59,062 nt of DNA, taken from positions 1-59,062 of IMG/VR virus record IMGVR_UViG_3300023179_007765; one strand, 5' to 3'. Shown one piece after another: positions 1 through 59,062 of this stretch. The DNA comes from a virus. Its lineage: Duplodnaviria; Caudoviricetes. The translations under genes were made by a program, and so were the position numbers. The notes below the pieces were generated by a model. It worked only from the letters and a program-made list of their open reading frames with translations, ran no database searches and was not told the origin of the DNA. Position 1 is the stretch's first letter, and each line of letters starts with the position of its first letter.

Positions 1-2419
1 TGCTGCGCCGACCTACTCGCTGAGCGCTAACAAGAGCGTCGCAACCGAAGGCACCTCGACCACCTTCACCGCCACTCGCACCGGCGACACCACCAGTGCC
101 GTCACGCTGGTCTACAACATCGTCGGCGACGACAACAGCGGCACCGTTACCAAGGCTACCCCGGGCACCGACACCGACGTCGCTTCGGGCACCGTGACCA
201 TCGCTGCTGGCGCCACCACCGGCACCTTCACCGTCTCGGCCACCTCGGACACCTCGGTCGAAGGCCTCGAAGGCGTCAAAGTCTCGCTGTTCGCCGACAC
301 CACCGTCGTCGCTACGCGCTCGCTGCTGCTCAATGACGACCCGACCGTGGTTCCGGCCCAGACTTTCACGCTCACTACGGGTGCGGACAATTTCACGGGC
401 ACTTCCGGCAACGACACGATCAACGCATTCATTGGTGCGGCCAACAGCACCCTGACTGGCGCCGACATTATTGACGGCGGTGCGGGCACCGACACTCTGA
501 ACCTGAATACCGATAACACCGGCACTCTGTCTGCAGCATCTATCACCAACGTTGAGATCTTCAAGATTCGTGACGTTGGCGCGGCTGCGACCTACAACTT
601 CGCAACTGTTTCCGGTGAGAACTCTGTCATCAACAACATCAGCACTTCTGCGGTGACTCTGAGCGCGATGGCTGCTGGTACGGCGCTGACCATTAAAGGT
701 GACGGTACGACGACCAACGGTGCAACCACCTTCACTATGGCTGCCGCGACCGACGCCGTCAATCTGACCATCGATGGTGGCGTGACCGCTGGTGCCATCA
801 CTCGCAACGCCACTGGCGCTGCGACGGTTACAGTGAACTCTACCGGCGCTGCCAACACCATCGGTGTTCTGGATCTGGATACTGCTACTGCGGTCAAGGG
901 TCTGACCATTAATGCAGCGACTAACCTGACCGGCAGCTTGGCGGCTGACTATGCTGCCAGCTCTTCCCTGACCGTGACTGGTGCGGCCACTAAGGTTGAC
1001 CTGAGTGGCGCAGCCCTGTCGGCCAACATCACCAAGGTTGATGCTTCTGGCATGACCGCTGGCGGCGTGCTGGTCGCAGTTGATCAGACCGACACCACGG
1101 TGGATACCCAGTTTATTGGTGGCGCTGGCAACGATACGCTGGATATCGGTAAGGTTGTTTACAACAGCACAACCCTGACTGCGGCCGGTGGCAATGGCAC
1201 TGACACCCTCAAGATGTCTGACCAGGCTGCCCTGACCTCGACCACTGCCAAGTACATCTCCGGCTTCGAAACCCTGAGCCTGTACGACGACAACGACGGT
1301 GCGCTGGATACCTTCGACGCATCTCTTCTGTCTGGCATTACCGGCGTGTCGCTGGCTGCTGACTCCGCTGGCGACGGCTATGCTGTGACCAACCTGTCGG
1401 CCGCCCAGGCTGCCAACATCACCATCACTGGCAGCAACAACAACGTCGGCCCGACCCTGACCATCAAGGACGCCACCACGGTGGGCAACCTCGACACCCT
1501 GAGCGTTGCGATCAACGACGGTGCTACTGCGGTCAGCACCCTGACCTTGGCCAACCTGACCTCGGCTGGCGCGGAAACCATCAACTTCGCGCTGACGGAC
1601 AACCTGACGCTGTCCTCTGCCACGGGTCTGACGGCTCTCACCAAGATTGGCGTGACCGGTGCCGGCGCACTGAACCTGACCACTGGTGCTCTGGCGCTGA
1701 ACGTGAACTCCACCATCGACGCTTCGGCCTCTACCGGTACCGTGACGATCGACGCATCTGCTGGCACCACCAACGGTCTGGCCATCAAGGGCTCGTCCAC
1801 CAAGGCCAACACCATCACCGGTACCAACCAGGATGACGTCATCACCGGCGGCACTGGCGTGGATACGGTGAAGAACCAGGCCAACGCCGCGACCGACAGC
1901 GACACTGTGGACTTCGTGTCTGACAGCGCAGCTGACATCTTCGAAGTCACCACCCTGACCGGCAAGACCACCATCACCAACTTCGACGTGGCCACCACGA
2001 CCACCACCGAAGACTTGGTGAACGTGTCGAATGACAGCGCTGACGGCGCTGAAACGCAGATCACCGCAGCCGCCGCTCAAGCTTTGATCGGTAGCGACAA
2101 GACCATCGTGATCGAGCAGACCGTCGGTGCTGCAGCGTCTCTGACGACCGGTGGTACTGCCACCCTGGCCGCAGCTGACTTCACTGCTGCGACGTTGACC
2201 AACGTGGCTGCGTTCCTGAGCGAGCGCTTCACGGGCGACAACGACACGTTGGCTGATGAGACTGCCGTGATCATCATGAACAACGGCACGAACAGCTACA
2301 TGTATGCCTATGCTGACTCGACGACCGCCAACACGACGATTGACGCTAGTGAACTGACCCTGATCGGTGTGTTCAACGGCGCCATCCTGAACGCTGGCGA
2401 CGTCTACCAGACGGTCTAA
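1..2419 (+). CDS. RsaA-like S-layer / RTX-type surface protein, 5' end outside the window; Calx-beta-like segment (1..~350) followed by a Thr/Ala/Gly-rich beta-helical region
   Basis: Frame open from position 2 (gct gcg ccg acc tac...) to TAA at 2417-2419; TLTTGADNFTG motif, GGxGxD Ca-binding nonapeptides (GGAGTDTL, GGAGNDTL, GGNGTDTL, GGTGVDTV), T/A/G/D-rich composition, type I secretion-like C-terminus. Confidence 0.85.
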   Translation, partial: AAPTYSLSANKSVATEGTSTTFTATRTGDTTSAVTLVYNIVGDDNSGTVTKATPGTDTDVASGTVTIAAGATTGTFTVSATSDTSVEGLEGVKVSLFADTTVVATRSLLLNDDPTVVPAQTFTLTTGADNFTGTSGNDTINAFIGAANSTLTGADIIDGGAGTDTLNLNTDNTGTLSAASITNVEIFKIRDVGAAATYNFATVSGENSVINNISTSAVTLSAMAAGTALTIKGDGTTTNGATTFTMAAATDAVNLTIDGGVTAGAITRNATGAATVTVNSTGAANTIGVLDLDTATAVKGLTINAATNLTGSLAADYAASSSLTVTGAATKVDLSGAALSANITKVDASGMTAGGVLVAVDQTDTTVDTQFIGGAGNDTLDIGKVVYNSTTLTAAGGNGTDTLKMSDQAALTSTTAKYISGFETLSLYDDNDGALDTFDASLLSGITGVSLAADSAGDGYAVTNLSAAQAANITITGSNNNVGPTLTIKDATTVGNLDTLSVAINDGATAVSTLTLANLTSAGAETINFALTDNLTLSSATGLTALTKIGVTGAGALNLTTGALALNVNSTIDASASTGTVTIDASAGTTNGLAIKGSSTKANTITGTNQDDVITGGTGVDTVKNQANAATDSDTVDFVSDSAADIFEVTTLTGKTTITNFDVATTTTTEDLVNVSNDSADGAETQITAAAAQALIGSDKTIVIEQTVGAAASLTTGGTATLAAADFTAATLTNVAAFLSERFTGDNDTLADETAVIIMNNGTNSYMYAYADSTTANTTIDASELTLIGVFNGAILNAGDVYQTV
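368..417 (+). repeat. Putative attL core inside the S-layer gene; direct repeat of 56173..56222
   Basis: acgctcactacGggtgcggacaaTttcacGggcaCTTcCggcaacgacac versus acgctcactacTggtgcggacaaCttcacCggcaGCAcAggcaacgacac: 43/50 identical, first 11 nt perfect, same reading frame. Confidence 0.7.
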
Positions 2420-2502: not shown

Positions 2503-3046
2503 GAAATTTTCCCGTTGAAACCGACATGACTACGCTGAAGTTCCAGAACCGCCTTGCCAAGTTGATGAAAGCAGGTGATGTGCAGACGGTGCATCACGAA
2601 CTGGCGCGGCTACCGCTGAAGGAGGCGCTGAACTTCAATCTGCTTCAGTCGTGGGTGGAAATTCTGTCGTGCACGGGTATGGCCTCCGTGCAGTCGGCAT
2701 TGCGAGGCGCACGCACGGGCCGGTTAAGCGTGGCTGAGCGCACGATCGTCAATTCGTTTTTGGCCGTGGAGCATTGGTTGCAGCAGGATTGGCAGCGCCT
2801 GGAGTCGCTTGTCGCCGCCTCGCTGGGGCAGGCCAAATACGAAGTTGGCGGCAAGGACGTGGTCAATGCGCAGAGTCATATGAAGCTGTGCGTACGCTTG
2901 TTTGCCTACCGCTTGCAGCATCCGGCCGACTATGGGCGCCATGCCGCCCATTCACTGATCGCGATCGGCGATTCGCATTGTCTGGTACCGGCGGGGCGTA
3001 CCATTCAGTGGGGTGGTCGCCAGGTCGGTGTGTCGACCTCCCCTGA

Positions 3047-3880
3047 TCAGGTCCACGCATAACTAGAGGTTTCTGGGTTGTGGAACTGGCGGTACTCGAC
3101 GGGTGTGAGCCCGTCGAGGGCGTTGTGAGGGATCTCCTCGTTGTAGTCATGCAGCCAGCGCTCGGTGTGTTCCCGGACCTCGGTCAGGTTGCGGAACACG
3201 TACATATCGAGCACGCCTTTGCGGTAGCTGCCGTTGAAACGTTCGATGAAGCCGTTCTGCATCGGTCGGCCGGGTTGGATGAACTCGAGTTGAACGCCTT
3301 TGGCTTCCGCCCACTCGGCCAGCGCAATGGCGACGAACTCGGGGCCGTTGTCCAGCCGCAGTCGCTCCGGATAGCCGCGCCAGGCAGCGATCCGATCCAG
3401 TGTGCGGATGACCCTGCCAGCGGGAAGGTTCAGGTCTACCTCGACCGCCAAGGCCTCGCGGTTGTAGTCATCGACGACATTGAAGGTGCGGAATCTGCGG
3501 CCATCCCACAGCGCATCTGACATGAAGTCGCCGGACCAGCACGCGTTGACTCGCTCGCCCACAGCCAGGGGTTGCGGGTGCCGCGAGGGAATCCGCTTCT
3601 TGCCGCGCCGGCGACGATTCAACCGCAGCTCGCAGTACACCCGATACACCCGCTTGTGATTCCAGTTGAGGCCGCGTCGCCGTATCAGCAGGAACAGCTT
3701 GTCGAAGCCACGCTCCGGAAACCGCTCCGCCAGCTCCAGCAACACCGCAATCACTTCATCGTCCCGGTCCGGCCGACGCTCATAGCGCGCCACCGACCGC
3801 GACAGACCCACCGCCTCACAGGCCCGGCGCTCGCTGAAACCATGCTGTTCTCGCAGCATCTGCACCAGCGGGCGCTTCAT
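3047..3880 (-). CDS. IS3 transposase OrfB (DDE/rve integrase core)
   Basis: WSGDF, DNGPEF, PMQNGFIERFNG motifs. Confidence 0.95.
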   Translation of the reverse strand: MKRPLVQMLREQHGFSERRACEAVGLSRSVARYERRPDRDDEVIAVLLELAERFPERGFDKLFLLIRRRGLNWNHKRVYRVYCELRLNRRRRGKKRIPSRHPQPLAVGERVNACWSGDFMSDALWDGRRFRTFNVVDDYNREALAVEVDLNLPAGRVIRTLDRIAAWRGYPERLRLDNGPEFVAIALAEWAEAKGVQLEFIQPGRPMQNGFIERFNGSYRKGVLDMYVFRNLTEVREHTERWLHDYNEEIPHNALDGLTPVEYRQFHNPETSSYAWT

Positions 3881-3888
3881 CGCCGGGC

Positions 3889-4155
3889 CTACAGCTTTTT
3901 TGCGATGACGTCCTTCAACGCCGTCACCTCCAAAGCCAGATCGGCATACATCCGCTTGAGCCGGCCGTTCTCCTCTTCCAACTCGCGCAGCCGCCGAACG
4001 TCCGAGGCCTCCATGCCCCCGTACTTCGACTTCCAGACGTAATACGTCGCGTCCGATATCCCCAACTCCCGACAGACATCCTTGACCTGCCGGCCACCTT
4101 CCACCTGCTTCAGGGTCTGGACAATCTGACTCTCACTGAACTTGCTCTTGCGCAT
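3889..4155 (-). CDS. IS3 transposase OrfA (HTH), with an A6G -1 frameshift site at its end
   Basis: MRKSKFSESQI...YYVWKSKYGGM...KKL; minus strand reads gcaaaaaagctgtag. Confidence 0.93.
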   Translation of the reverse strand: MRKSKFSESQIVQTLKQVEGGRQVKDVCRELGISDATYYVWKSKYGGMEASDVRRLRELEEENGRLKRMYADLALEVTALKDVIAKKL

Positions 4156-5491
4156 CGCGGGCCTCCCAGGGCGTAGTTTGCCCAGAAGACTCCAGCGATC
4201 CACGGACCTAATTTACGGGAGGTCGACAGGTGTGCAATCGATGCCGATCCGTGGCATCAAGATGTTTCATTTGGGTCTGGGAGTGCCGGCCAAGTACCGC
4301 GCATACTTTCGTGAGCGTCTCAGGCAACTGCCCGCTGACGCCGATGTGCTACTGTCGATCGGGGAGATCGACTGTCGCCCCAATGAGGGCATCTTTTACA
4401 CGGCGCACAAGGATGCTGGCCGTGACTTGAAGGCGTTGCTTGAAAAGACGGTCGCCGATTTCGTGACGTATGTTCACGACGAAATTCGTTTGAGCGGCGC
4501 GGCCTTGCGCAGCGTGACTCTCCAGGGCGTGCCCTGGCCGGCGTACGAGATTGCCAACCGTTTACCTGCAGGCACGGATGAGGCCACCTTCTTTGCCTTC
4601 ATCGACAAGGTCAACGAGGTGATGCAACGGGAGGCGCAACGGGCAGGCTGGCAGTTTCTGGACGTGAAGACGCCTACGGGGCAGAACGCCGGTGGGGGCG
4701 CGCCTGAATTGCGTCTTGACGATATCCATCTGTCACCCTGTTTCTATGATCAGGCCGATCAGTGGCGCAGGGATGTGAGTGGCCTAGGCCGCGATGATGT
4801 CAAGCTGGTATCGACCAGCAGTCATCCGTCACAGGCGGCCGAACAGAGCCCTACTTTTCTGCATGTCGATTGTGGTCAGACGCGAAAAGCCGGAACCACG
4901 CCAGAGTTCAGTCGACCCACATGGAAGGAGTTGCGCCAAGACAGCGATCCGGGAAACCAACCCGACATCATCGGCAGCGTGGTGGACATGAGCCGCGTGC
5001 CCCAGGGTTCTGTGAACGCCATATTTTCAAAGAATGACATAAACCGGCTGTACCCACAACAAGTGGAATCGGTATTACAGGAATTTTTGCGTGTGCTGAC
5101 GCCAGATGGCTATCTGGTGATCAGTTGCCCCGACCTCAAATCCATTTGCGCCTTGGTGGCGCAAGACCGCCTGACGGAACCGGTGGGGAGGGATGAGCAC
5201 GGGCCGTTGGCACCCCTGGACCTGATTTATGGAAACCGCGCAAAACTCAGCACGGGTGACCAGTCGGCGGCTTTCAAGTGCGGTTTTACAGCAAATGTGC
5301 TTGCTGGAACGCTCAATGCGGCGGGTTTTCAATCGATCGCCGGTAAGGTGAGAGATCGCGCGCCATTTTTTGATATCTGCCTCGTTGCTAGCAAGCAGGC
5401 GATGGAGGATTCCGAGATCAAGAAACTTGTGGGCTTGCACTTTCCCGACTGATAAAAATTAAAAACTCTTCCCCATCAGAGGCAATAACCA

Positions 5492-7027
5492 ATGACTGAC
5501 TGGACTGCTGGCTACGTGGCCGATATTGGCTATACCTTTGGCTATTACACCGAATTGAATCCCCAGCGAGTCAAACTCGCGTTTCTTAACCAGGGACTGG
5601 TATTCCCGGAAATGTGGACTGGCTGTGAACTCGGCTACGGTCAAGGGCTGTCTGCCAACTTTCACGCGGCGGCATCGGTTACCCAATGGCACGGCACGGA
5701 CTTCAATCCCAGCCAAGCGGGTTTCGCACAAGAATTGGCTGCCGCTTCTGGTGCCGGCGCCAAGCTCTACGACGAAGCCTTTGCCGACTTTGCCAACCGA
5801 GCCGATCTCCCCAACTTCGACTACATCGGCCTGCACGGCATCTGGAGCTGGATCTCTGACGAGAACCGCACCGTCATTGTCGACTTCATCCGCAAGAAAT
5901 TGAAGGTTGGCGGCGTGCTCTACATCAGCTACAACACCCTGCCGGGCTGGGCCAGTTTCGCCCCGATGCGCCACCTGATGACCGAACACGCCGAAGTGCT
6001 GGGTGCCGAGGGTAAGGGCATCGTCAGCCGCATCGACGGCGCCATCGACTTTGCCGAGAAACTGCTCGCTACCAACCCGACCTTCAGTCGTGCCAACCCG
6101 CTGGTGGGCGACCGGCTCAAGAAGATGAAAGAGCACAACCGCCACTACCTGGCGCACGAGTACTTCAACCGTGACTGGCACCCCATGCACTTCGCCACCA
6201 TGGCGGAGTGGCTGGAAGGCGCCAAGGTGCAATACGCCTGCTCTGCGCATTACCTCGATCACATCGAGGCCGTGAATCTCACCACCGAGCAGCAGGCCTT
6301 TCTCAAGGACATCCCGGACCCGATGTTCCGCGAGACCACCCGCGACTTCATGGTCAACCAGCAATTCCGTCGTGACTATTGGGTCAAGGGTGCCCGCAAA
6401 CTGAACGCACTCGAACAAGCTGAAGCCTTGCGGGCACAGCAGGTCATCCTCGTCGCCCATCGCCCGGATGTGTCGCTGAAAGTGACCGGGGCATTGGGTG
6501 AGGCCGACATGAGCGAGGCTGTCTACGCACCCATTCTCGATCTGCTTGCTGACCACAAGGCCAAGTCCCTCGGTCAGATCGAGCAAACGGTCAAGGACAA
6601 GGGTATCGCCTTCGCCCAGATCATTCAGGCGGCCATGGTGCTCACCGGAGCTGGGCATCTGGCCCTGGTGCAGGACGAGCAGGTGATCACCAAAGCCAAG
6701 AAGCAGACCGACAAGCTCAACGCCCACCTGTGCCAAAAGGCGCGGGGCAGTAATGACATCAGCTACCTATCCAGCCCGGTCACCGGCGGCGGCATTGCCG
6801 TCAACCGCTTCCAGCAGCTCTTCCTGATGAGCCTCGCGCAGGGCAGGAAGCAACCTGCGGAATGGGCGCAATACGCCTGGAGTGTGCTGTCCGTGCAGGG
6901 GCAGCGCCTGGTGAGGGAAGGGAAGACGCTGGACACTGCCGAGGACAATCTCGCAGAACTGGTAGCACAGGCGCAGACGTTCGCCGAGAAGCAGTTGCCG
7001 ATTCTGCGAGCCTTGCAGGTTACTTGA
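5492..7027 (+). CDS. Class I SAM-dependent methyltransferase with a methyltransferase regulatory domain
   Basis: ELGYGQG SAM motif, FDYIGLHGIWSW, YNTLPGW, YLAHEYFN, NQQFRRDYW. Confidence 0.88.
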   Translation: MTDWTAGYVADIGYTFGYYTELNPQRVKLAFLNQGLVFPEMWTGCELGYGQGLSANFHAAASVTQWHGTDFNPSQAGFAQELAAASGAGAKLYDEAFADFANRADLPNFDYIGLHGIWSWISDENRTVIVDFIRKKLKVGGVLYISYNTLPGWASFAPMRHLMTEHAEVLGAEGKGIVSRIDGAIDFAEKLLATNPTFSRANPLVGDRLKKMKEHNRHYLAHEYFNRDWHPMHFATMAEWLEGAKVQYACSAHYLDHIEAVNLTTEQQAFLKDIPDPMFRETTRDFMVNQQFRRDYWVKGARKLNALEQAEALRAQQVILVAHRPDVSLKVTGALGEADMSEAVYAPILDLLADHKAKSLGQIEQTVKDKGIAFAQIIQAAMVLTGAGHLALVQDEQVITKAKKQTDKLNAHLCQKARGSNDISYLSSPVTGGGIAVNRFQQLFLMSLAQGRKQPAEWAQYAWSVLSVQGQRLVREGKTLDTAEDNLAELVAQAQTFAEKQLPILRALQVT

Positions 7028-50879: not shown

Positions 50880-51304
50880 CTCCGCTACTCACCACTTTGG
50901 CGCCTGGCTTGCTGGAAGCGGGAAGCCGCCTGATCGACCGCCTGGTGCCGGACCCCGCCGAGCGGGAGAAAGCCAAGCTCGCGTTACTGCAGGCGGAAGG
51001 GCAACTGGCGCTGCAGGAGATGCAGACGAGTCTCTCCGCGATCCTGGCTGAAGCCAACTCAGCCGACCCTTGGACCAGCCGGGCGCGGCCGACCTTCCTG
51101 TACGTCATCTACGGCGTGATCCTGCTGTGTGTGATGGGCGCCATCATCGGCATCTGGTGGCCGACGCACGTCTTCCAGGCTGCGGAGAACCTCAACAAGC
51201 TGCTGGGTGCGGTGCCCGAGAGCCTGTGGTGGCTCTTCGGTGCTGGCTACCTCGGCTACACCGGGGCGCGCAGCTTTGACAAGTGGCGTGGGCCAGTGCG
51301 CTGA
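50876..51304 (+). CDS. 3TM-type holin family protein
   Basis: LIDRLVPDP...WTSRARP...GYLGYTGARSFDK. Confidence 0.8.
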   Translation: MTPLLTTLAPGLLEAGSRLIDRLVPDPAEREKAKLALLQAEGQLALQEMQTSLSAILAEANSADPWTSRARPTFLYVIYGVILLCVMGAIIGIWWPTHVFQAAENLNKLLGAVPESLWWLFGAGYLGYTGARSFDKWRGPVR

Positions 51305-51338
51305 CCGGTGCTGCCGCGCACGACAACCTCAAAAGACG

Positions 51339-51387
51339 ATCCCCCGATCTCACTGCCTTCACCGGTGGTGGGGTCGGGGGATTTTTG
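51339..51387 (+). terminator. Terminator after the lysis cassette
   Basis: atcccccgatctcac...gtggggtcgggggat followed by tttt. Confidence 0.7.
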
Positions 51388-51525
51388 CGTTTGTGGTGTC
51401 CGAGACTTCGTAGCGTTGAACGGTTCTCATTGAATTCGTGTCAACCATAGTGTAAACTGACAACCCCTGTGACAACCAGGGCGACAGCTTTCTAGGCAAC
51501 CAACCAAAGGAGAAAACGCGTGAAA

Positions 51526-52314
51526 ATGACCAAAGCGCCTGTTTATTACGCACTGGCTCAAGCGCAGTTTAATCCTGTGGCTGCCATGGCAAAGTACGTC
51601 GACGAGATTCAAGACATCCTGCGCCGGGAGGGGTATACCCTTTTTGAGCCGCAAGAAATCACGCAACTGCAGTTCGTGGGGGCTGCTGGACAAGCGCCGG
51701 CTAATCCCGAGCTAATGAAAGTTACCAATTGGCTGATTTCAAAGGCTGATCGGACTGCTGGCTTTATTTTGGGCTCATCCTCTCTGGCCTACCACACAAC
51801 TCATTATGAAACTCGGAACGAGTTCTTGCCGGAGTTGGTGCAGGGATTGCAAGCTGTTCACAAGGTGGTTTTTCTAGATCACATTGCTCGACTGGGTTTG
51901 CGTTATCTCGATGCGGTGATTCCCGGCGAAGACGAGCAGGTTTCGCAGTATTTGGCTGATGGTTTGCAGGGCGTGACATTCGGCGCAAAGCAGCGTTACG
52001 CGATGAGCGAGTCTGTTTTTGAGACAGAAACAGGGCCACTGGTGAAATCAGGGACTTTGGTTGCGCGCGTTTATCGTGCGACATCTCCTCTTGGTTATCC
52101 GCCCGATCTGATTCCTCACGGGCTTCAGCCAATGCCTCGCTTCCAGAGGAGCGACACGATCTCCCACGCTGTGATTGATACCGATCACTATGTTGAAGGC
52201 AGAATGCCTATTGATTTTGAGCAGATCAAGGCACAGTTGGCGTCGCTGCACACGGGGATCAAGCAATCTTTCGAGGCAACTATTACGTCTTACGCTGCAG
52301 AAGTCTGGCGCTGA
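51526..52314 (+). CDS. TIGR04255-like protein
   Basis: KAPVYYALAQAQF, RLGLRYLD, VIDTDHY. Confidence 0.7.
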   Translation: MTKAPVYYALAQAQFNPVAAMAKYVDEIQDILRREGYTLFEPQEITQLQFVGAAGQAPANPELMKVTNWLISKADRTAGFILGSSSLAYHTTHYETRNEFLPELVQGLQAVHKVVFLDHIARLGLRYLDAVIPGEDEQVSQYLADGLQGVTFGAKQRYAMSESVFETETGPLVKSGTLVARVYRATSPLGYPPDLIPHGLQPMPRFQRSDTISHAVIDTDHYVEGRMPIDFEQIKAQLASLHTGIKQSFEATITSYAAEVWR

Positions 52315-52331
52315 TTAGAGGAGGGTTGGAT

Positions 52332-52955
52332 ATGTATGCAAACCACACTGTGGGTATAAATCCACGACTGCCATTGCGCAGCGTTGCACAGACCGCTTTT
52401 GTTGTGATGCTTGTAGGAACTGGCAGTGTTTATGCAATGGATCGCTTGGACACGTGGCGACCGCACCTTCAACACCGAGTTCCGTTTATTCCGGAAGCAG
52501 GTGTTCAGAGTAATGGTTCTGAACGGATTGATGTTCGTACTCCGCTTGAGCATCTTGAAAATATCCGCACGGTATTGAACCCTGCTGTTTCAGACTTGGC
52601 ATCCGTATTTGATGTTTCACGACAGGCTATTTACAAGTGGTTATCGAACGACTCGAAGCCAGAGGCTGAAAAGTCAGCTCGTGTGCAGGCGCTCAGTCAG
52701 ATCGCAGATGCTTTCAAAGAAGCCGGCGTAGCACGTGCTGGCAGCCTTCTCAAAATGAAGACCTTTGGTGACCGGTCTCTCATGGACATCGTAAGGGCCG
52801 GAGATGATTGGCATGAGGCCGTGGATGCCCTGATTGCCGAATCGCGTGCGATGGAGCGTGCCTATGAGCGGTCTGGACTGGCCAAATCCAAGGCAAAGCC
52901 AACTTCAGATTGGCAGACCTCTCAGTCAATTCCCGCGTCGCGCGAAGATGTGTAA
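52332..52955 (+). CDS. HTH-containing protein (Xre/antitoxin-like)
   Basis: SDLASVFDVSRQAIYKW helix-turn-helix. Confidence 0.65.
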   Translation: MYANHTVGINPRLPLRSVAQTAFVVMLVGTGSVYAMDRLDTWRPHLQHRVPFIPEAGVQSNGSERIDVRTPLEHLENIRTVLNPAVSDLASVFDVSRQAIYKWLSNDSKPEAEKSARVQALSQIADAFKEAGVARAGSLLKMKTFGDRSLMDIVRAGDDWHEAVDALIAESRAMERAYERSGLAKSKAKPTSDWQTSQSIPASREDV

Positions 52956-52964
52956 GGGAGAACT

Positions 52965-53816
52965 ATGCTCGGACGTGACACGCCTTGGAGGCAGGGCAGC
53001 GTAATTGCCCAGGCGGACGCCATCGCGGCCGGCTTATTCGATGAGACTTCCTCGAGCCTCAAACGGGCTCTTGTCATTACGCACGACTGTGATCTGACGA
53101 ATGACAGAGAGCTCGAAGTCGAGGTTATGGTCGGAAATGTGGTCGACAAGCTGAACAAACAGTTCGCTCGTGCCCGTAATGTTCGGCGCCTCCACTTGGC
53201 ATTCGATACGCCGTCTGGCAACCAGCAGTTTATTGACCTGCAGATAACCGCCAAGCAATCCATCTCCAAATCTCTGATCGCCGGCTCCAAGCCAGACGGT
53301 GGCTGGGTCCTGTCGGACGAGGAGAAACGATCCCTCAAGCAGTGGCTGGCAGCACGCTATGGTCGCCCAGCTTTTCCGAACGCGTTTGAGACGCATCTTC
53401 GCAAAAATGTCAGCAAGAAAGAGACGGTAGAGGATCGACTCGGGAAGGTCCTTGAAAAAGTGAGCGCCCATTTGGTCGGGGTGTTTTTTGACTTGGGTGA
53501 AAACCGCGCTGCCGAGCTCACGGATGGATCGCCTTACGACCTGAGGATTACTGTTGTCTATGACGCGAGTGAAGGTGGACAGCCTGCGAGGCTGGCTGCT
53601 GAAGAGGTGGTCTCTGAGATTCGGGATATTTTCCAATCGGCTTATGGTCCTCCAGAGGCAGCAACTGAGATCGCGCTGGAATCTTGCGAAGCAGTTGCAG
53701 ACCTTCGCTTCCCACTATCGGATCTGCGCAAAGTGGATCAATGGCGTGCCGAATACATCAGCCTGCGCCAGGACCCTCCAGAGTCGTTCCTGGCTGTTGG
53801 AGAGCTGCCAGCGTAA
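52965..53816 (+). CDS. Hypothetical protein (WRQG...VITHDCDL family; possible toxin or nuclease)
   Basis: 283-aa ORF with RBS; WRQGS, ITHDCDL, WLAARYGRPAFP. Confidence 0.65.
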   Translation: MLGRDTPWRQGSVIAQADAIAAGLFDETSSSLKRALVITHDCDLTNDRELEVEVMVGNVVDKLNKQFARARNVRRLHLAFDTPSGNQQFIDLQITAKQSISKSLIAGSKPDGGWVLSDEEKRSLKQWLAARYGRPAFPNAFETHLRKNVSKKETVEDRLGKVLEKVSAHLVGVFFDLGENRAAELTDGSPYDLRITVVYDASEGGQPARLAAEEVVSEIRDIFQSAYGPPEAATEIALESCEAVADLRFPLSDLRKVDQWRAEYISLRQDPPESFLAVGELPA

Positions 53817-54316
53817 TGGCATCAGGGGTAACTGAAGTTCTGGGCATCACCTGCGCGGGGCACTTTTGGCAAGAAGTGGTGCTTCCGAACGCGGTGCATT
53901 ACCGCCAGCATCCTACGGCCAGGGAGGCGTTCAACTTGGCTGCGTCGTTATGGCACTTGATCGACTGGGTCTTCGAGGACCCGCGTCTGAACTCGCAGCA
54001 CCAAGAAAAGAAAGCTCTACAGACCAACCTCCGACAGCAGTGCCCGGCACTGGGTGTGATGCACGACATCACCACGCTGTACAAGCACGCTCGAATGACC
54101 AGGCCGCAAGGGAATGTGATGGCTACGGATGTGGAGATGCTGGGGGCAACGTTCTACTTCGGTCCAGGTGGTCCTGTTTCCGAACATCCAGGTGAGTACG
54201 TCGTGACCTTGGAGGGAGGGGAGCAGCGCCCATTGAACGAATTGTTCGATGAGGCGCTGAAATTTTGGGACGGCTACTTCCGCGCTGATGCGGCGGGTCA
54301 GCAGGTCACGCTATAG
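53816..54316 (+). CDS. Hypothetical protein, HEPN-like helical family
   Basis: ATG overlaps the previous TAA; AFNLAASLWHLIDW...HDITTLYKH. Confidence 0.55.
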   Translation: MASGVTEVLGITCAGHFWQEVVLPNAVHYRQHPTAREAFNLAASLWHLIDWVFEDPRLNSQHQEKKALQTNLRQQCPALGVMHDITTLYKHARMTRPQGNVMATDVEMLGATFYFGPGGPVSEHPGEYVVTLEGGEQRPLNELFDEALKFWDGYFRADAAGQQVTL

Positions 54317-55517
54317 CCGCCACCTGAGGTGTGCCAGTGTTGGCTGCGACTGGCCGCCGCCCCACGACATTCCCCACCACATTGACCGCCTCCAGCATCG
54401 CCTGCGGCGACAGGTGCGCGTAGCGCATCGTCACCTTCGGATCGTGATGACCCAGGAGCTTTTGCACCTCGTACAGCGACCGCCCAGCGTTGACCAGGAA
54501 ACTGGCGTAGCTGTGGCGCAGGTCGTGCAGCCGCACTTCCTCCAGCCCGACTTTCTTGCGGATCGAGTCCCAGGCGTAGAAGATCGACACCGGAGGCTTC
54601 TTGGTCTTGGGGTTAAAGAACACCCAAGGGATGTCGTCCTGCCGGGGCAGCGACAGCAGCAACTCAATGGCCGCATCCGAGAGCGGGATGTGGCGCGGCT
54701 TCTTCGACTTCGACCGTGCCGCCGGCACCGTCAGCATCCGGCGATTGAAATCGATCTCGTCCCACCGGGCATCCAGGATCTCCCGCTTGCGGGCACCGGT
54801 GTAGAGCAGCAGCCGGATCACCTGGCCCACCTGCACATTGCGGTTGGTGTCGAGTTCATCAAACAGCCGCTGCACCTCGTCGGTCGTCAGGTAACGCTCC
54901 CGGGCGCCGTGGTCCTCAAAAGGCTCTACCCCATCGCAGGGGTTGCTTTTGGGCGGCAGGATGTCCCAGCGGATCGCGCAGTTGTAGATGAACTTCATCA
55001 GCACGATCATCCGGTTGCAGGTCCCGGCCGCGTAGCCCTTCTCGAACACCGCGTGGTGGAAGGCCACCACATCGGAGCGGGTGATGCGGTTCATCCGAAA
55101 CTCGGCAAACACCGGCAGGAGGTGGTTGCGCAGCATCGTCTCGTCTGTCTCCCAGCTGCGCTTGCGGGTCTTGGCGTAGGGCAGATAGCGCTCGGCCACG
55201 AAATCCCCGAAGGTCGGTACATCCTTGAAGCGATGACTCTCCACCTTGGGGTCGCCACCCTCGGTGACCATCTGCTTCATCTTGTGCGCTTTGGCCCGGG
55301 CGTCCGACACCGAAATCTCGTCAGAGCGGCCAATCCGATTCAGCCGCACCTTGCCGGCGGCGTCGCGGTAGCGGAAGTAAAAGGTGGCGCCGCCGCTGGC
55401 CCGATGCTCCAGCAGGAAGCCCTTGATCTCCGTATCGAAGTAACTCACGGCCCCGGAGGCAGGCTCGCGACCTGGCAATGTGGCCAGGAATTCGGTCGTC
55501 AACGCTTGTGCTGGCAT
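54306..55517 (-). CDS. int: Tyrosine integrase with an N-terminal arm-binding domain
   Basis: YFDTEIKGF arm-binding domain; TGARKREI (R), KSK (K), HDLRH (HxxR), LGH, RYAH (Y). Confidence 0.95.
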   Translation of the reverse strand: MPAQALTTEFLATLPGREPASGAVSYFDTEIKGFLLEHRASGGATFYFRYRDAAGKVRLNRIGRSDEISVSDARAKAHKMKQMVTEGGDPKVESHRFKDVPTFGDFVAERYLPYAKTRKRSWETDETMLRNHLLPVFAEFRMNRITRSDVVAFHHAVFEKGYAAGTCNRMIVLMKFIYNCAIRWDILPPKSNPCDGVEPFEDHGARERYLTTDEVQRLFDELDTNRNVQVGQVIRLLLYTGARKREILDARWDEIDFNRRMLTVPAARSKSKKPRHIPLSDAAIELLLSLPRQDDIPWVFFNPKTKKPPVSIFYAWDSIRKKVGLEEVRLHDLRHSYASFLVNAGRSLYEVQKLLGHHDPKVTMRYAHLSPQAMLEAVNVVGNVVGRRPVAANTGTPQVAAIA

Positions 55518-55627
55518 CGTCGTGCTCCTCTATCTATTGAGGGTCATGCTACGATACAATGCGCCGGAAAGGACATAAAAAGCGTCTAATAGACCGGAAT
55601 ATTTACCTACCCAAAAAGGAGTCGACC

Positions 55628-55879
55628 ATGATCGACGGAAGACAGATCCGCGCCGCACGCGCGATGCTGGGCTGGAGCCGGGACGACCTGCTCAAGGCCT
55701 CGGGCATCTCGATGTCAGCGCTGCTGCGCATGGAAGGGGCACTGGCCGACAGCCGGGGCTCCACACTCAACAAGGTGGCCAAGGCCCTGACCCTGGCCGG
55801 CATCGAATTCGTCACTCGGGATGACGGGGCGATTGGCGTGATCCTCAAGGCACAAAATCCGCCCGATGCGCCACAATGA
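55628..55879 (+). CDS. XRE-family HTH regulator, divergent from the integrase
   Basis: QIRAARAMLGWSRDDL...GIEF. Confidence 0.88.
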   Translation: MIDGRQIRAARAMLGWSRDDLLKASGISMSALLRMEGALADSRGSTLNKVAKALTLAGIEFVTRDDGAIGVILKAQNPPDAPQ

Positions 55880-55908
55880 GCACAGCATCCCGAGCACCCC
55901 AAAAGGCA

Positions 55909-55945
55909 CAAAGGCCACCTGATGAGACACATTGGGTGGCCTTTG
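55909..55945 (+). terminator. Hairpin after the HTH gene
   Basis: caaaggccacc...ggtggcctttg 11-bp stem. Confidence 0.6.
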
Positions 55946-55963
55946 CACTAGATGGCTTCGGTT

Positions 55964-56140
55964 GGTAGGTAGTTTGTACGTCTGATTGGCTGCAAATTGC
56001 GTCTATATAGATAGGTGACACGGCTAAGTCTTTGAAAAGACAAAGGAAATATCCGATCAGAATGAAAATATGCCTTTTGCGGTAGGAAAGTGGTAGGAAG
56101 TGGGCGCTTCGAGGGCTTCAAAACGCGCGTAAGTCTTTGA
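55964..56140. promoter_or_regulatory. Putative attP-derived arm: integrase arm-type and IHF-like sites
   Basis: GGTAGG at 55964, 56081 and 56092 (GGTAGGAA tandem with 11-bp period); TAAGTCTTTGA at 56025 and 56130, resembling the IHF consensus YAANNNNTTGATW. Confidence 0.6.
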
Positions 56141-56163
56141 CTTATAAAGGGATTGCGGAGTAG

Positions 56164-58719
56164 CTGGCTATTACGCTCACTACTGGTGCGGACAACTTCA
56201 CCGGCAGCACAGGCAACGACACCTTTTTCGCCTCTTTGGTGTTTGCTGCTGATGAAACAGTTACAACAGCTTCACAGTTGTCAGTCGCTGATATTTTGGC
56301 CGGCGGAGCAGGTACTGACACACTCAACATCGTAATTTCTGGCTTACAAGATGCCGCCGTTACTGTTCCTGTGGCTTCTACTTCAGCTATGGAGACAATT
56401 AACATCCGCAACACTGTCGCTCAGGAAGCAACCTATGCTGCTACGAACGGCTTAACAACTGCTGCCTCAGATCGTTCTACTGGTGCGGTAGTTTTTTCTG
56501 GTCTTGCAGCTGGCGCAGTCGGCAGCGTCATCGGTGATGGTGTTGTTACAAACGGCGCATCAACCTTTGGATACGCTGCTACTGTTACATCCGGTACGGT
56601 TAATTTCTCAGGTGGAACCTTAGGAACACCTGTCGTTACTACTTCAGGAACACTCCTCGCTACCCAAACCGTTAACTCAACTGGAGCTGCAAACGTAACC
56701 GGCGCAATGACACTGGGTGCAGCTGTTACAACTTTGAACGTCAATGCTACAACAGCCTTGACAACAGGTGCTGTGACCAACACAGGCGGTGCAGCTTTGA
56801 CCAGAATCAACGTTACTGGTTCGGGCGCAGTTAGCTTGTCTGCTACCCCATTGGAAGCAACTGTTACAACCATTGATGCATCAGCTGCTACTGGTGCTTT
56901 GACTGTTGCATTGGGTTCTGCTGTTACACAAACAGTTACTGGCGGTACAGGTAACGACGTGATCACAACTGGTGCTGTTCTGACAACTGGTTCAGTTAAC
57001 GCTGGTGCAGGCACCGACGTTCTGGACGTCGGTACTAACGTTGCACACGTCAATACTTCAACCTTGGCTGCAAAGTACACAAACTTTGAAACAGTACGTA
57101 TTGGTGCGGCTGCTTTGGATATGTCCTTGATTGGCGGTATCAATGCAGTTCAATTGACAGGCGCTGCAACATTGACCAACATGACAGCTACCCAAGCTGC
57201 TGCAGTTACAGCTCGTGCAAACATTGGTAACGCAAGTCTGGCATTGGCAACTGCAACTGGCACATCGGACGTCTTGACCATTACAAACGGTTTGGGAACT
57301 ACGACGGCAGCTGCCACCACAATCGGCACACTGGTTGCTACAGGTTTTGAAACAATTAACCTCGCAGCAAACCCTGGCCCAACAGCCACATCAGGTGCAA
57401 ACCGTACTACAACGGTTACAGCGATCACTGATACATCATTGACCGCTGTCAATTTGACTGGTACTGCATTCACTTTTGGTGATATCGCTTCTACAAAGGC
57501 AGTTGCTTGGAATGCTTCAGCATTGACAGGTAACGGTGCTTCTACTCCAGTCGGTTTGACCTTGACCACAACTGGTGCAGCATTCGCCGGCTCTACTGTT
57601 ACTGGTTCCGCTCTGCGCGATTCGGTGATCATGGACTCTTCGACAGGTGTTACCTTTAACTTGGGTGCAGGCAACGACATCTTCTCGACAACATCAACAC
57701 TGCTGTTGCCATCAGGTGCTGCTACCGATAACACCATCAATGCTGGTGAAGGTGCTACTGACCGATTGGTGTTCACAGGTGCAGCAACTCTGACAGACAC
57801 ATCCTTCATCAAAACTTCCGGTTTCGAAGCTTTGGAGCTGGCAGGTGCTGGTGTTGCTAACAGTGTGACTGGTTTGGCCGCTGGTTTCTTGACAGGTTTC
57901 GCAGGTGGCGTAACTGTTACTGATACTGCTGCACAGACAGGTGCAAATGCATACACTTGGTCTTCTGGTTTGTATGCACAGCCAGTGACATTGACTCATG
58001 AGACTACATATGCCGGTACAGCTGCTGCTGGTAACCAAACCATTACAACTGGCGCAGGTAACGATACGATTACTGTGATTGCTTCGTCATGGGTTGGTGT
58101 TGCTGCTGGTACAGGCGCTACGATTGCAGTCAGTACTGGTGCAGGTAACGATACGATTACTGTTACTACTGGAACGCAGCTTGCACAAACTACAACTGCT
58201 CCTGTTGTGATTACGGGCGGTTTGGGTGCTGATACGATCACATCGTCGGGCGTCAACATCACAACTGGTGCTGGCGTACTGACAACAACATATGTGATTG
58301 CTGCTGGTGACTCTACGACAACTGCTTACGACTCAATCACTGGTTTTGACCTTGGAACTGCCGCACTTTTGCCTTCAACTCTGGACTTGGTAGGTACTGG
58401 TGCTGTTACCACTTATGCAGCAACTGCACCAACTGGCTACACAGCAGCTCAATTGACAGTTGCAGTTACTGCAACTTCTGGTTTGGTAGTTTTTGCGGGT
58501 ACAAGCGCCTCTGCATTGACTTTGGCAGAAAAAATTGCAGCAGTTCAATCAGTTGTTACAACCAACACCACTGACTTGGCAGTATTCACTCATGGTGCAA
58601 ACTCCTATGTGTTCCAAAACAACACAGCTGGAGACATCGTAGTTGAATTGGTTGGTGTTGCCGCAACAAACATCATTGTTGCCAACGCTAACGTTGCAGG
58701 TAGTGTCTTGGTGCTCTGA
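56164..58719 (+). pseudogene. 5'-truncated, start-less 3' half of a second RsaA-like S-layer gene (848 sense codons from the repeat)
   Basis: In-frame TAG at 56161-56163, then LAI-TLTTGADNFTGSTGNDTF... open to TGA at 58717-58719; GGxGxD repeats; no convincing RBS/ATG; codons strongly A/T-ending. Confidence 0.85.
56173..56222 (+). repeat. Putative attR core; direct repeat of 368..417
   Basis: 43/50 identity; lies at the boundary between the phage right arm and the start-less S-layer half gene. Confidence 0.72.
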
Positions 58720-58777
58720 TATCAACAAACCAAATACCCTCTTAAAAGGGTGATTCGTTAAGGTTCAAAACCACCAC

Positions 58778-58810
58778 AACCCCATCCCTCACAAGGGGGT
58801 GGGGTTTCTT
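58778..58810 (+). terminator. Rho-independent terminator after the second S-layer half
   Basis: aaccccatccc...gggggtggggtt followed by tctt. Confidence 0.75.
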
Positions 58811-58832
58811 CATTAATAAAAGGATTACTTAA

Positions 58833-58940
58833 ATGACCACTATCAATATTAACAACGTCGACTACGATACCGACAAACTCTCTGACGAAGCCAGGGCCCA
58901 GTTGGTCAGCCTTCAGTTCTGCGACCAAGAACTTCGGTAA
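58833..58940 (+). pseudogene. DUF6447-like small protein truncated by an IS insertion
   Basis: MTTININNVDYDTDKLSDEARAQLVSLQFCDQELR*; the stop lies within the apparent IS end. Confidence 0.65.
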
Positions 58941-59062
58941 TCCCCCCAAGGAGTCGAGGGGCTGGGAGGTAGAATTTTCTCGTAACGGAGGAGGTTCTAC
59001 ATGCGCAGGTCGAGGTTTACGGACAGCCAGATCATGGCGGTGCTCAAGCGTGCTGAGGTGGG
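58936..59062 (+). mobile_element. Left end of a second IS3-family element (runs off the window)
   Basis: ggtaatcccccc end; RBS ggagg; OrfA from ATG 59001, MRRSRFTDSQIMAVLKRAEV. Confidence 0.8.

Follow-up and report, generated by a model that had tools for sequence, protein, structure and literature searches.

We analyzed a 59,062-base metagenome contig that is filed as a virus record (IMGVR_UViG_3300023179_007765; hereafter, the window, meaning this stretch at its full length) and found that it contains a 55.8-kb tailed prophage integrated inside a bacterial surface-layer (S-layer) gene. The integration site is CTCACTAC, which encodes the Leu-Thr-Thr of a conserved linker, TLTTGxD, that connects the anchor part of the protein to its lattice part. 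The phage joined its own 3' half of the gene to the host 5' part, and the old half now lies behind the right attachment site (attR), with neither a promoter nor an anchor. This displaced half is very probably foreign to the 5' part of its own gene, and it is part of a pool of interchangeable modules in circulation among freshwater bacteria that differ widely in G+C content. The features on which these statements bear are the following (all coordinates are those of the window).

Positions 2..367, plus strand: 5', anchor-side part of the S-layer gene, with a frame open from base 2; it is on the host side of the left attachment site (attL) and runs off the contig start.
Positions 368..378, plus strand: attL core, ACG followed by CTCACTAC (Thr-Leu-Thr-Thr codons), an identity block in common with 56173-56183.
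Positions 368..2419, plus strand: phage-borne replacement 3' half, fused in frame to the 5' part, with RTX repeats and a G+C fraction at third codon positions (GC3) of 0.73.
Positions 54306..55517, minus strand: P4-type tyrosine integrase of the prophage, with the Pfam domains Phage_integrase and Arm-DNA-bind_3 and a SAM-like domain.
Positions 56173..56183, plus strand: attR core, ACG followed by CTCACTAC; the homology to related cassettes starts at 56173, and the homology to related prophages ends at 56181-56226.
Positions 56164..58719, plus strand: displaced 3' half of the S-layer gene, 851 codons and a stop, with RTX repeats.

The fused open frame, 2-2419, encodes a Thr/Ala/Gly-rich RTX protein (PF00353, 34 bits). 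This frame and that of the displaced half have the peptide TLTTGADNFTG in common; the identity block opens with ACG CTCACTAC, no similarity is left on its left side, and the two cores of the window are direct repeats. As in integrations of the e14/icd type, the integrase lies near the attachment site, a short core is found at both ends, and the replacement 3' end is in frame.

An initial interpretation made from the letters alone (the sequence-only reading) had pointed to A/T-ending codons in the right half, as opposed to C/G-ending codons in 1..367, and to an unbroken frame of ~2.5 kb, and both observations were confirmed by measurement. The three segments have a GC3 of 0.85 (2-367, 104 of 122 codons), 0.73 (phage-borne half, 368-2416, 500/683) and 0.36 (displaced half, 56164-58716, 306/851), so that the right half differs from the 5' part (Fisher p = 1e-25 for G/C-ending codons). 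In the 5' part, 25 of the 29 Thr codons are ACC, two are ACT and none is ACA, and Gly is encoded by GGC in 10 of 10 cases; in the displaced half, Thr is encoded by ACA 71 times, by ACT 66 times and by ACC 28 times, Ala by GCT 69 times and by GCA 61 times, and Gly by GGT 67 times. The low GC3 is evenly distributed, each of the 16 sliding windows (100 codons) having a value of 0.25-0.44, and the value for the entire half is below those of all 35 prophage open reading frames (ORFs) measured (median 0.79, range 0.47-0.87). The frame opens at 56164, straight after a TAG at 56161-56163, and its 851 codons are closed by a stop (58717-58719); the final 343 bases of the window are outside the S-layer coding sequence.

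A native half, with A/T-ending codons that result from very high S-layer expression or from a repetitive Thr/Ala/Gly-rich domain, has to be weighed against these data. Among the relatives, whole S-layer genes have a lower GC3 than their neighbors in four of the five intact genome loci (L001, L002, L004 and L005, but not L003), so the deficit may be partly a trait of the family, and many intact genes are low in both parts, including those of L012 (0.41/0.32) and L014 (0.37/0.36). A family trait, however, cannot explain a GC3 gap of 0.49 within one gene. A native half is contradicted by its own 5' part, with the GC3 of 0.85 and near-exclusive ACC and GGC. Furthermore, the phage-borne half, which has the same amino acid make-up, reaches 0.73, the halves displaced by the same phage family span GC3 values of 0.36-0.73, and a 92% identical copy of the present half occurs on other anchors, in contigs of ~50% G+C. 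Native origin thus appears highly improbable.

The contention of the sequence-only reading that the displaced half is itself foreign is supported by these ~92% identical copies on unrelated anchors and by the GC3 contrast. Four lake-metagenome loci (L008-L011) match the window at 92% DNA identity, exactly from 56173 to 58935, and another locus (L012) matches at 83%; in a blastn comparison with 57 related loci, the 5' part, 2-367, produced no match. P0003, P0004 and P0005, three proteins with 96, 94 and 89% identity to the half, respectively, bear three different DUF4214 N-terminal parts, with a pairwise coverage-scaled identity of 9-37%, so that, together with the 5' part of the window itself, there are four anchors for one module. 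For the comparison of N-terminal and C-terminal parts, we used the 58 homologues, out of 120 listed, that were divisible at the linker, which yielded 1,653 pairs. Among the matches listed, three pairs have the C-terminal half in common (at least 80%) but not the N-terminal part (<40%), 11 pairs have the N-terminal part in common (at least 80%) but not the C-terminal half (<55%), and only three pairs have both parts in common.

The contigs that carry close copies of the module have ~50% G+C, with neighbor genes at GC3 0.5-0.6, and the host side of the window and the prophage have ~60-66% G+C. When the displaced half was compared with the intact copy in L010, the ratio of nonsynonymous to synonymous substitutions (Ka/Ks) was 0.098 (Ka 0.024, Ks 0.244), with zero gaps in 848 codons; therefore, the displaced half is not decayed, and the copies diverged under purifying selection. 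In a metatranscriptome contig (run X7), the module differs at 3 of 263 bases and is joined at 56176 to the end of an anchor (SGASGQTFT) that uses A/T-ending codons, which indicates that a version of the gene with a low GC3 in both parts exists in lakes. A peptide-pattern scan of viral contigs detected no relative of the displaced half, and in the cultured-phage collection, nothing matched it at E 1e-5 and the integrases were at most 31% identical. Genome contigs searched with the fused protein (P0001) yielded one weak locus only.

Given that the window is a metagenome contig and that the core region is common to many organisms of the same lakes, an assembly chimera, in which a high-G+C prophage was joined through the core to the low-G+C cassette of another organism, was considered as well. 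Contigs of two DNA runs of other studies bridge position 56173 with zero differences (X3, 55784-56350; X6, 55893-56226), the depth is similar on either side (5.7 vs 7.4 in X3, 6.7 vs 4-10 in X6), and isolate genomes show the same layout. We rejected the chimera on the basis of the junction-crossing contigs X3 and X6 and consider it extremely improbable.

The displaced half contains RTX repeats at 29.9 bits (PF00353, cut-off 23), and its full-length relatives, of 1,024-1,035 residues, have an N-terminal DUF4214 (PF13946) ahead of the linker; the 5' part at 2..367 gave no DUF4214 match in its visible 122 residues. Residues 357-664 of the full-length relative P0003 showed a weak but specific similarity to four RsaA/S-layer chains (E 1e-6 to 2e-6), RsaA being the Caulobacter S-layer protein with a solved structure. 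In RsaA, the N-terminal part binds the O-antigen of lipopolysaccharide (LPS), and the C-terminal part builds the lattice. On this reading, by analogy with RsaA, the half that is exchanged would be exposed and would serve for lattice formation and secretion, and the 5' part that stays in place would be the anchor. The region 56164-58719 can accordingly be annotated, from its sequence, as the putative former C-terminal RsaA-like RTX module of the host S-layer gene, calcium-binding and secreted, with lattice formation and type I export predicted. The exposed lattice module is presumably a phage receptor or a shield. Psh of Pseudomonas putida, a secreted surface protein that likewise combines RTX and DUF4214, is type I secreted, attaches to the O-antigen of LPS and protects cells against many phages, according to the accessible part of bioRxiv 10.64898/2026.09.02.748959, which provides a plausible selective reason for phages to change the coat. 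The order of the domains in Psh is reversed, with RTX at the N-terminus and DUF4214 at the C-terminus, and mobile elements are not part of the account in that portion of the source.

The linker core was found repeatedly as a junction. The eight bases of CTCACTAC are exact in 16 of the 19 junctions compared, intact genes included, in hosts of ~45-65% G+C, and such fixed synonymous positions are as expected of a recombination core. The junction-proximal matches over the loci and the window made up 59 junction rows. Twelve of these open no more than 19 codons ahead of the linker motif and are anchorless, namely, the half in the window, L036, two rows each from L011, L027 and L034 (a duplicate of L027), and one row each from L033, L026, L006 and L058; if L034 is dropped, 10 remain. 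Intact genes have 145-280 codons upstream of the motif. Homologues of the integrase (36-61% identical) are encoded on the opposite strand, 0.2-1.9 kb upstream of such truncated halves, metagenome loci included.

About 30 viral-contig loci encode an integrase 79-99% identical to that of the window, and their homology to the window ends at 56181-56226. Beyond these ends, there are seven different halves that start with LAITLT or a close variant, with GC3 values of 0.40-0.69. One complete provirus record, in which both ends are visible, includes the fused gene from its Met as well as a displaced half with a GC3 of 0.73, and in L036, the same phage end (94% nucleotide identity) is joined to yet another half. 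Most of the related viral contigs match the window only in the integrase-to-attR module (54306-56172, the matches running from ~54349), and hence this module seems to be mobile between phages.

In species-representative genomes, we identified 78 loci with relatives of the integrase. The cassettes in genomes were sought by local scanning of fetched contigs, given that a profile search of five genomes gave few. By the profile test, a truncated half is located within 3 kb in 20 of the 48 integrase copies with at least 3 kb of sequence past the 5' end, which is a lower bound because, in the Allochromatium and Thauera misses, the half starts at the core, and a third miss is a short remnant. In four loci (L134, L144, L147 and L150), the whole unit is visible and consists of the fused head, an island of ~8-10 kb, the integrase and the displaced half. 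With truncated halves beside integrases in the relatives, the idea that mobile elements, each with a 3' half and accessory genes, reuse the same site is well founded. The integrase of the window recurs, at 93-98% identity, in genomes under the labels of very distant genera, namely, Allochromatium, Thioalkalicoccus, Stutzerimonas, Extensimonas (two copies), Tepidimonas, Thauera, Yanghanlia and Gallionellaceae (L107-L127). In L040, L179 and L183, an integrase of the family is encoded just upstream of an apparently intact S-layer gene, the product of which starts with MAIS or MAIT; this arrangement may reflect another target position or another type of anchor.

Serial replacement is real in relatives. 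A single contig of the isolate Polynucleobacter sp. 31A-FELB encompasses four units, each with a minus-strand integrase followed by a plus-strand truncated half. All four integrases contain Phage_integrase and Arm-DNA-bind_3 and are 42-86% identical to one another, and primase-helicase genes are present in two of the units. The halves have no mutual BLAST similarity at E 1e-5; one is above the RTX cut-off, two match the cassette profile with RTX below the cut-off, and one was recognized by position and motif only. In addition, L027 contains three truncated halves and an integrase broken by a stop, L011 contains two truncated halves, and L131 and L167 contain two integrase copies each, one of the L167 copies being split. 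In Oxalobacteraceae bacterium OM1, one contig carries a complete unit, and a second contig carries an integrase with a truncated half. A tandem stack of alternative 3' cassettes, as envisaged in the sequence-only reading, thus exists in relatives, up to four deep.

The loci with the closest copies place the module itself on an island. In L011, the module (99.5% nucleotide identity to that of L010) is displaced behind an integrase, and the island ahead of it carries another truncated half, a methyltransferase, a small ORF, a toxin-antitoxin pair and a gene without known function. In L008-L010, where the module is attached to an anchor, the small ORF comes next, and after it the same gene without known function from the island of L011 (99.6% nucleotide identity in L010), which makes the module in these loci the head of an island. 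The arrangements in L010 and L011 (4338-5472 and 10004-12976) differ by a crossover inside a 317-base repeat of the small ORF. Comparison of the two arrangements suggests that such a crossover could let an island leave with the module it had displaced, and the relationship between L010 and L011 looks like the recapture of an archived module. The displaced module of L011 is followed, at L011:13144-14548, by two pairs resembling toxin-antitoxin systems, one Gp49 with a helix-turn-helix (HTH) protein and the other an MqsA-like HTH protein with BrnA. A 71-codon ORF (weak DUF6447) and a second small ORF trail S-layer genes, cassettes or their methyltransferases in ~25 loci, with DNA identity of up to 99% across differing contexts. 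The 71-codon ORF may act as downstream homology for module capture.

We consider it somewhat probable, judging from the composition of the displaced half, the breakpoint at the core and the relatives, that this half was delivered by an earlier element at the same core. Under this scenario, the half would have reached the host through an earlier event at the same linker, the likeliest vehicle being a phage or an island of ~10 kb with the same family of integrase and with the module beside the attachment site. Each integration would regenerate the core, and because of this, old modules would stack, with only the anchor-fused one expressed; the old gene would become whole again if the prophage were excised.

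Alternatively, the foreign half could have been installed without any earlier element, by homologous recombination with crossovers in the linker and in the downstream genes, that is, as a 'replacement' flexible genomic island. Exchange of S-layer and O-chain clusters by recombination is described, and the S-layer cassettes of Clostridioides difficile are cited, in the accessible part of PMC4033161. This route is compatible with the conservation of ~50 bases at the linker, with the identities across loci of the downstream small ORF (54-98%) and of the methyltransferase (67-77%), and with the finding that the 216 bases between the stop and the insertion sequence (IS) at the contig end harbor no element remnant. 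Conversely, the anchors are unrelated, so that the upstream homology is limited to those ~50 bases, the homology of the related copies begins exactly at the integrase core, the same type of module heads an island in L008-L010, and at least a dozen integrase-bearing elements demonstrably use the site. On these grounds, homologous recombination is the less attractive route, unlikely albeit with an appreciable chance of being correct.

Several observations weigh against delivery by an earlier element and the stacking of displaced modules. The window ends in an IS that starts 216 bases past the stop, so that little downstream sequence is visible, and this short stretch contains no integrase remnant, second core or further cassette. 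The G+C content of the host was gauged from 366 bases and the prophage alone. By profile, 26 of the 48 integrase copies are not accompanied by a truncated cassette (two of these are misses and one is a short remnant). The small ORF also trails S-layer genes away from any element and is therefore no marker of an element. The 31A-FELB contig has no fused head before the first unit and ends 177 bases past the last half, and in a complete Sphingomonadaceae chromosome, two integrase-cassette units are arranged tail to tail with an intact gene. With these points taken into account, the proposed history of the old half combined with the phage swap at the linker is, as a whole, the explanation that we favor with fair confidence.

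In the Sphingomonadaceae chromosome (G014, 2,250,001-2,330,000, L194-L197), the cores form inverted repeats, and all three copies are near-identical over the 90 bases that follow the core, which makes an inversion switch conceivable there. The intact gene adjoins ORFs of sizes that fit type I secretion components, which are candidates by ORF size.

The displaced half is likely silent, to judge by its predicted signals. Its frame lacks both an anchor and a start close to the core, and no sigma-70-like site was detected in 55850-59062, compared with a mean of 3.0 in shuffled sequences. Metatranscriptome runs X7 and X10 contain cassette-like contigs, most of which differ from the window by 1-10%; because of these differences, and because an RNA library can hold DNA, these contigs count neither for expression nor for silence.

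The remaining features of the window are the following.

Positions 5492..7027, plus strand: accessory methyltransferase that travels with the phage-borne half (Pfam PF10119 and a methyltransferase domain).
Positions ~7 kb to 51 kb: complete tailed prophage body, with primase, terminase large subunit, portal, head protease, major head protein, tail protein and tape measure.
Positions 55559..55879, plus strand: gene for a small HTH protein between the integrase and attR (weak Pfam HTH_31/HTH_3, below cut-off).
Positions 58778..58806, plus strand: terminator-like hairpin 3' of the displaced half, a stem of 12 pairs and then a T-rich tail.
Positions 58833..58935, plus strand: first 35 codons of the conserved 71-codon ORF, cut by the IS (80% over 35 residues vs L011:12660-12875; weak DUF6447, below cut-off).
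Positions 58936..59062, plus strand: end of a multi-copy IS, with the contig terminus inside it; the homology to L010/L011 stops at 58935, and loose ends are found at 58936.

The methyltransferase is 67-77% identical to the gene directly 3' of the S-layer genes or cassettes in L001, L002, L005, L011, L021, L027, L038, L041 and L054, and L011 has an HTH gene at the position equivalent to 55559..55879. The IS at the contig end has a depth of 27, compared with 7.4 for the contig (run X3), and the reading frame from 59001 presumably corresponds to the start of an IS3-family OrfA. Between the phage-borne half and its methyltransferases, there is an IS3-type transposase gene with rve domains (3047-3880, minus strand), preceded by an ORF without a family match (2526-3062, in the window region 2526-4203). 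Identity of the contig-end IS with the one at 3047-3880 was rejected because the last 132 bases match themselves alone. Just before the integrase, the prophage contains a patch of low G+C content (51000-54000, 0.52-0.56), in which the ORFs at 51520-53816 have a GC3 of 0.47-0.60; this patch could be cargo of separate origin. An Rfam search of 55800-59062 with E values up to 1 gave no match.

Several known systems resemble this one in part. Prophage e14 and phage 21 integrate in icd of Escherichia coli and bring an alternative 3' end. Here as there, the core of a tyrosine integrase lies in a coding gene, the element carries the 3' end, and the original end remains as a displaced fragment. In icd, however, the replaced end amounts to a few dozen codons and yields nearly the same protein, whereas here 680-850 codons are replaced by a different outer module (the phage-borne half is 31-40% identical to other cassettes), accessory genes are included, and displaced pieces pile up. 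The sap locus of Campylobacter fetus consists of complete S-layer homologues, which inversion of DNA rearranges inside a single genome. In C. difficile, homologous recombination serves to exchange whole S-layer cassettes (Dingle et al. 2013, as cited in the accessible part of PMC4033161). The present system shares with these two the presence of several alternative S-layer units per lineage, one of them expressed, a conserved part beside a variable one, and exchange between strains, but in neither of them do phage or island integrases bring the new module.

Accretion of elements in tandem is described in the accessible parts of several papers, for 'additive' flexible islands at one attachment site (PMC4033161), for islands at ssrA in Dehalococcoides (PMC3146451) and for phages with integrative and conjugative elements at one site (PMC13651849). 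In these cases, as here, the core is regenerated each time, later elements enter there, and each unit has its own integrase. The known targets are tRNA, tmRNA or similar genes, the function of which is unchanged, whereas the target here is a domain linker, and each event alters the expressed surface protein and archives the previous version. The tandem layout is encountered in the relatives (four units in 31A-FELB, two integrases each in L131 and L167); the window reaches 343 bases past the displaced half.

Integrons, too, are arrays of promoterless units served by a tyrosine recombinase at one site, where the unit next to the fixed 5' part is expressed. Here, however, each unit has its own integrase, and the units are gene halves with whole islands or phages. 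The integron assignment was rejected: the integrase scored 60 bits on TIGR02249 (cut-off 265) and 29.8 on NF011946 (cut-off 435), and its Arm-DNA-bind_3 is P4-type. No attC sites were noted, although repeats beyond the core were not searched for attC. A shufflon was rejected as well, given the direct-repeat cores in the window and scores of 16-22 bits on invertase models (cut-offs ~220); one relative has inverted cores. Thus, of the interpretation put forward in the sequence-only reading, the foreign half, the reused site and the stacks in relatives stand, but the likeness to an integron or a shufflon does not, given the P4-type phage integrase and the direct repeats. The closest likeness of the arrays is to islands that accumulate in tandem at one attachment site, here located within a protein-coding gene.

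Overall, the system unites two established mechanisms, namely, the integration of an element into a coding gene, whose 3' end it replaces, and the accretion of islands in tandem at one site. It differs from both in that the target is a linker, in that a whole functional module is exchanged together with accessory genes, and in that the displaced pieces archive alternative coats. We found no account of integrase-driven exchange of S-layer gene halves in the literature, the full text of subscription journals and supplements being outside our reach.

More tentatively, and with considerable doubt as to the entire chain, we propose that the Leu-Thr-Thr of the S-layer linker could be a shared landing pad, at which phages and islands would swap the lattice module, archive old modules intact, recapture them via the downstream small ORF and spread them across genera of 45-65% G+C, with inversion in some genomes, so that the whole would constitute a phage-built, integron-like coat reservoir. 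Because Polynucleobacter sp. 31A-FELB and Oxalobacteraceae bacterium OM1 are isolates, this idea can be tested at the bench. The locus provides an example of an integrase target in a domain linker, with conservation at the DNA level across hosts of 45-65% G+C. The S-layer is the outermost coat of the cell and a main contact point for phages and grazers. If replacement of the exposed module by phages and islands, with retention of the old ones, is routine, lysogeny would switch the surface identity of the cell in one step, reversibly by excision, distant freshwater genera would share coat modules, and the arrays of silent modules would record past infections.

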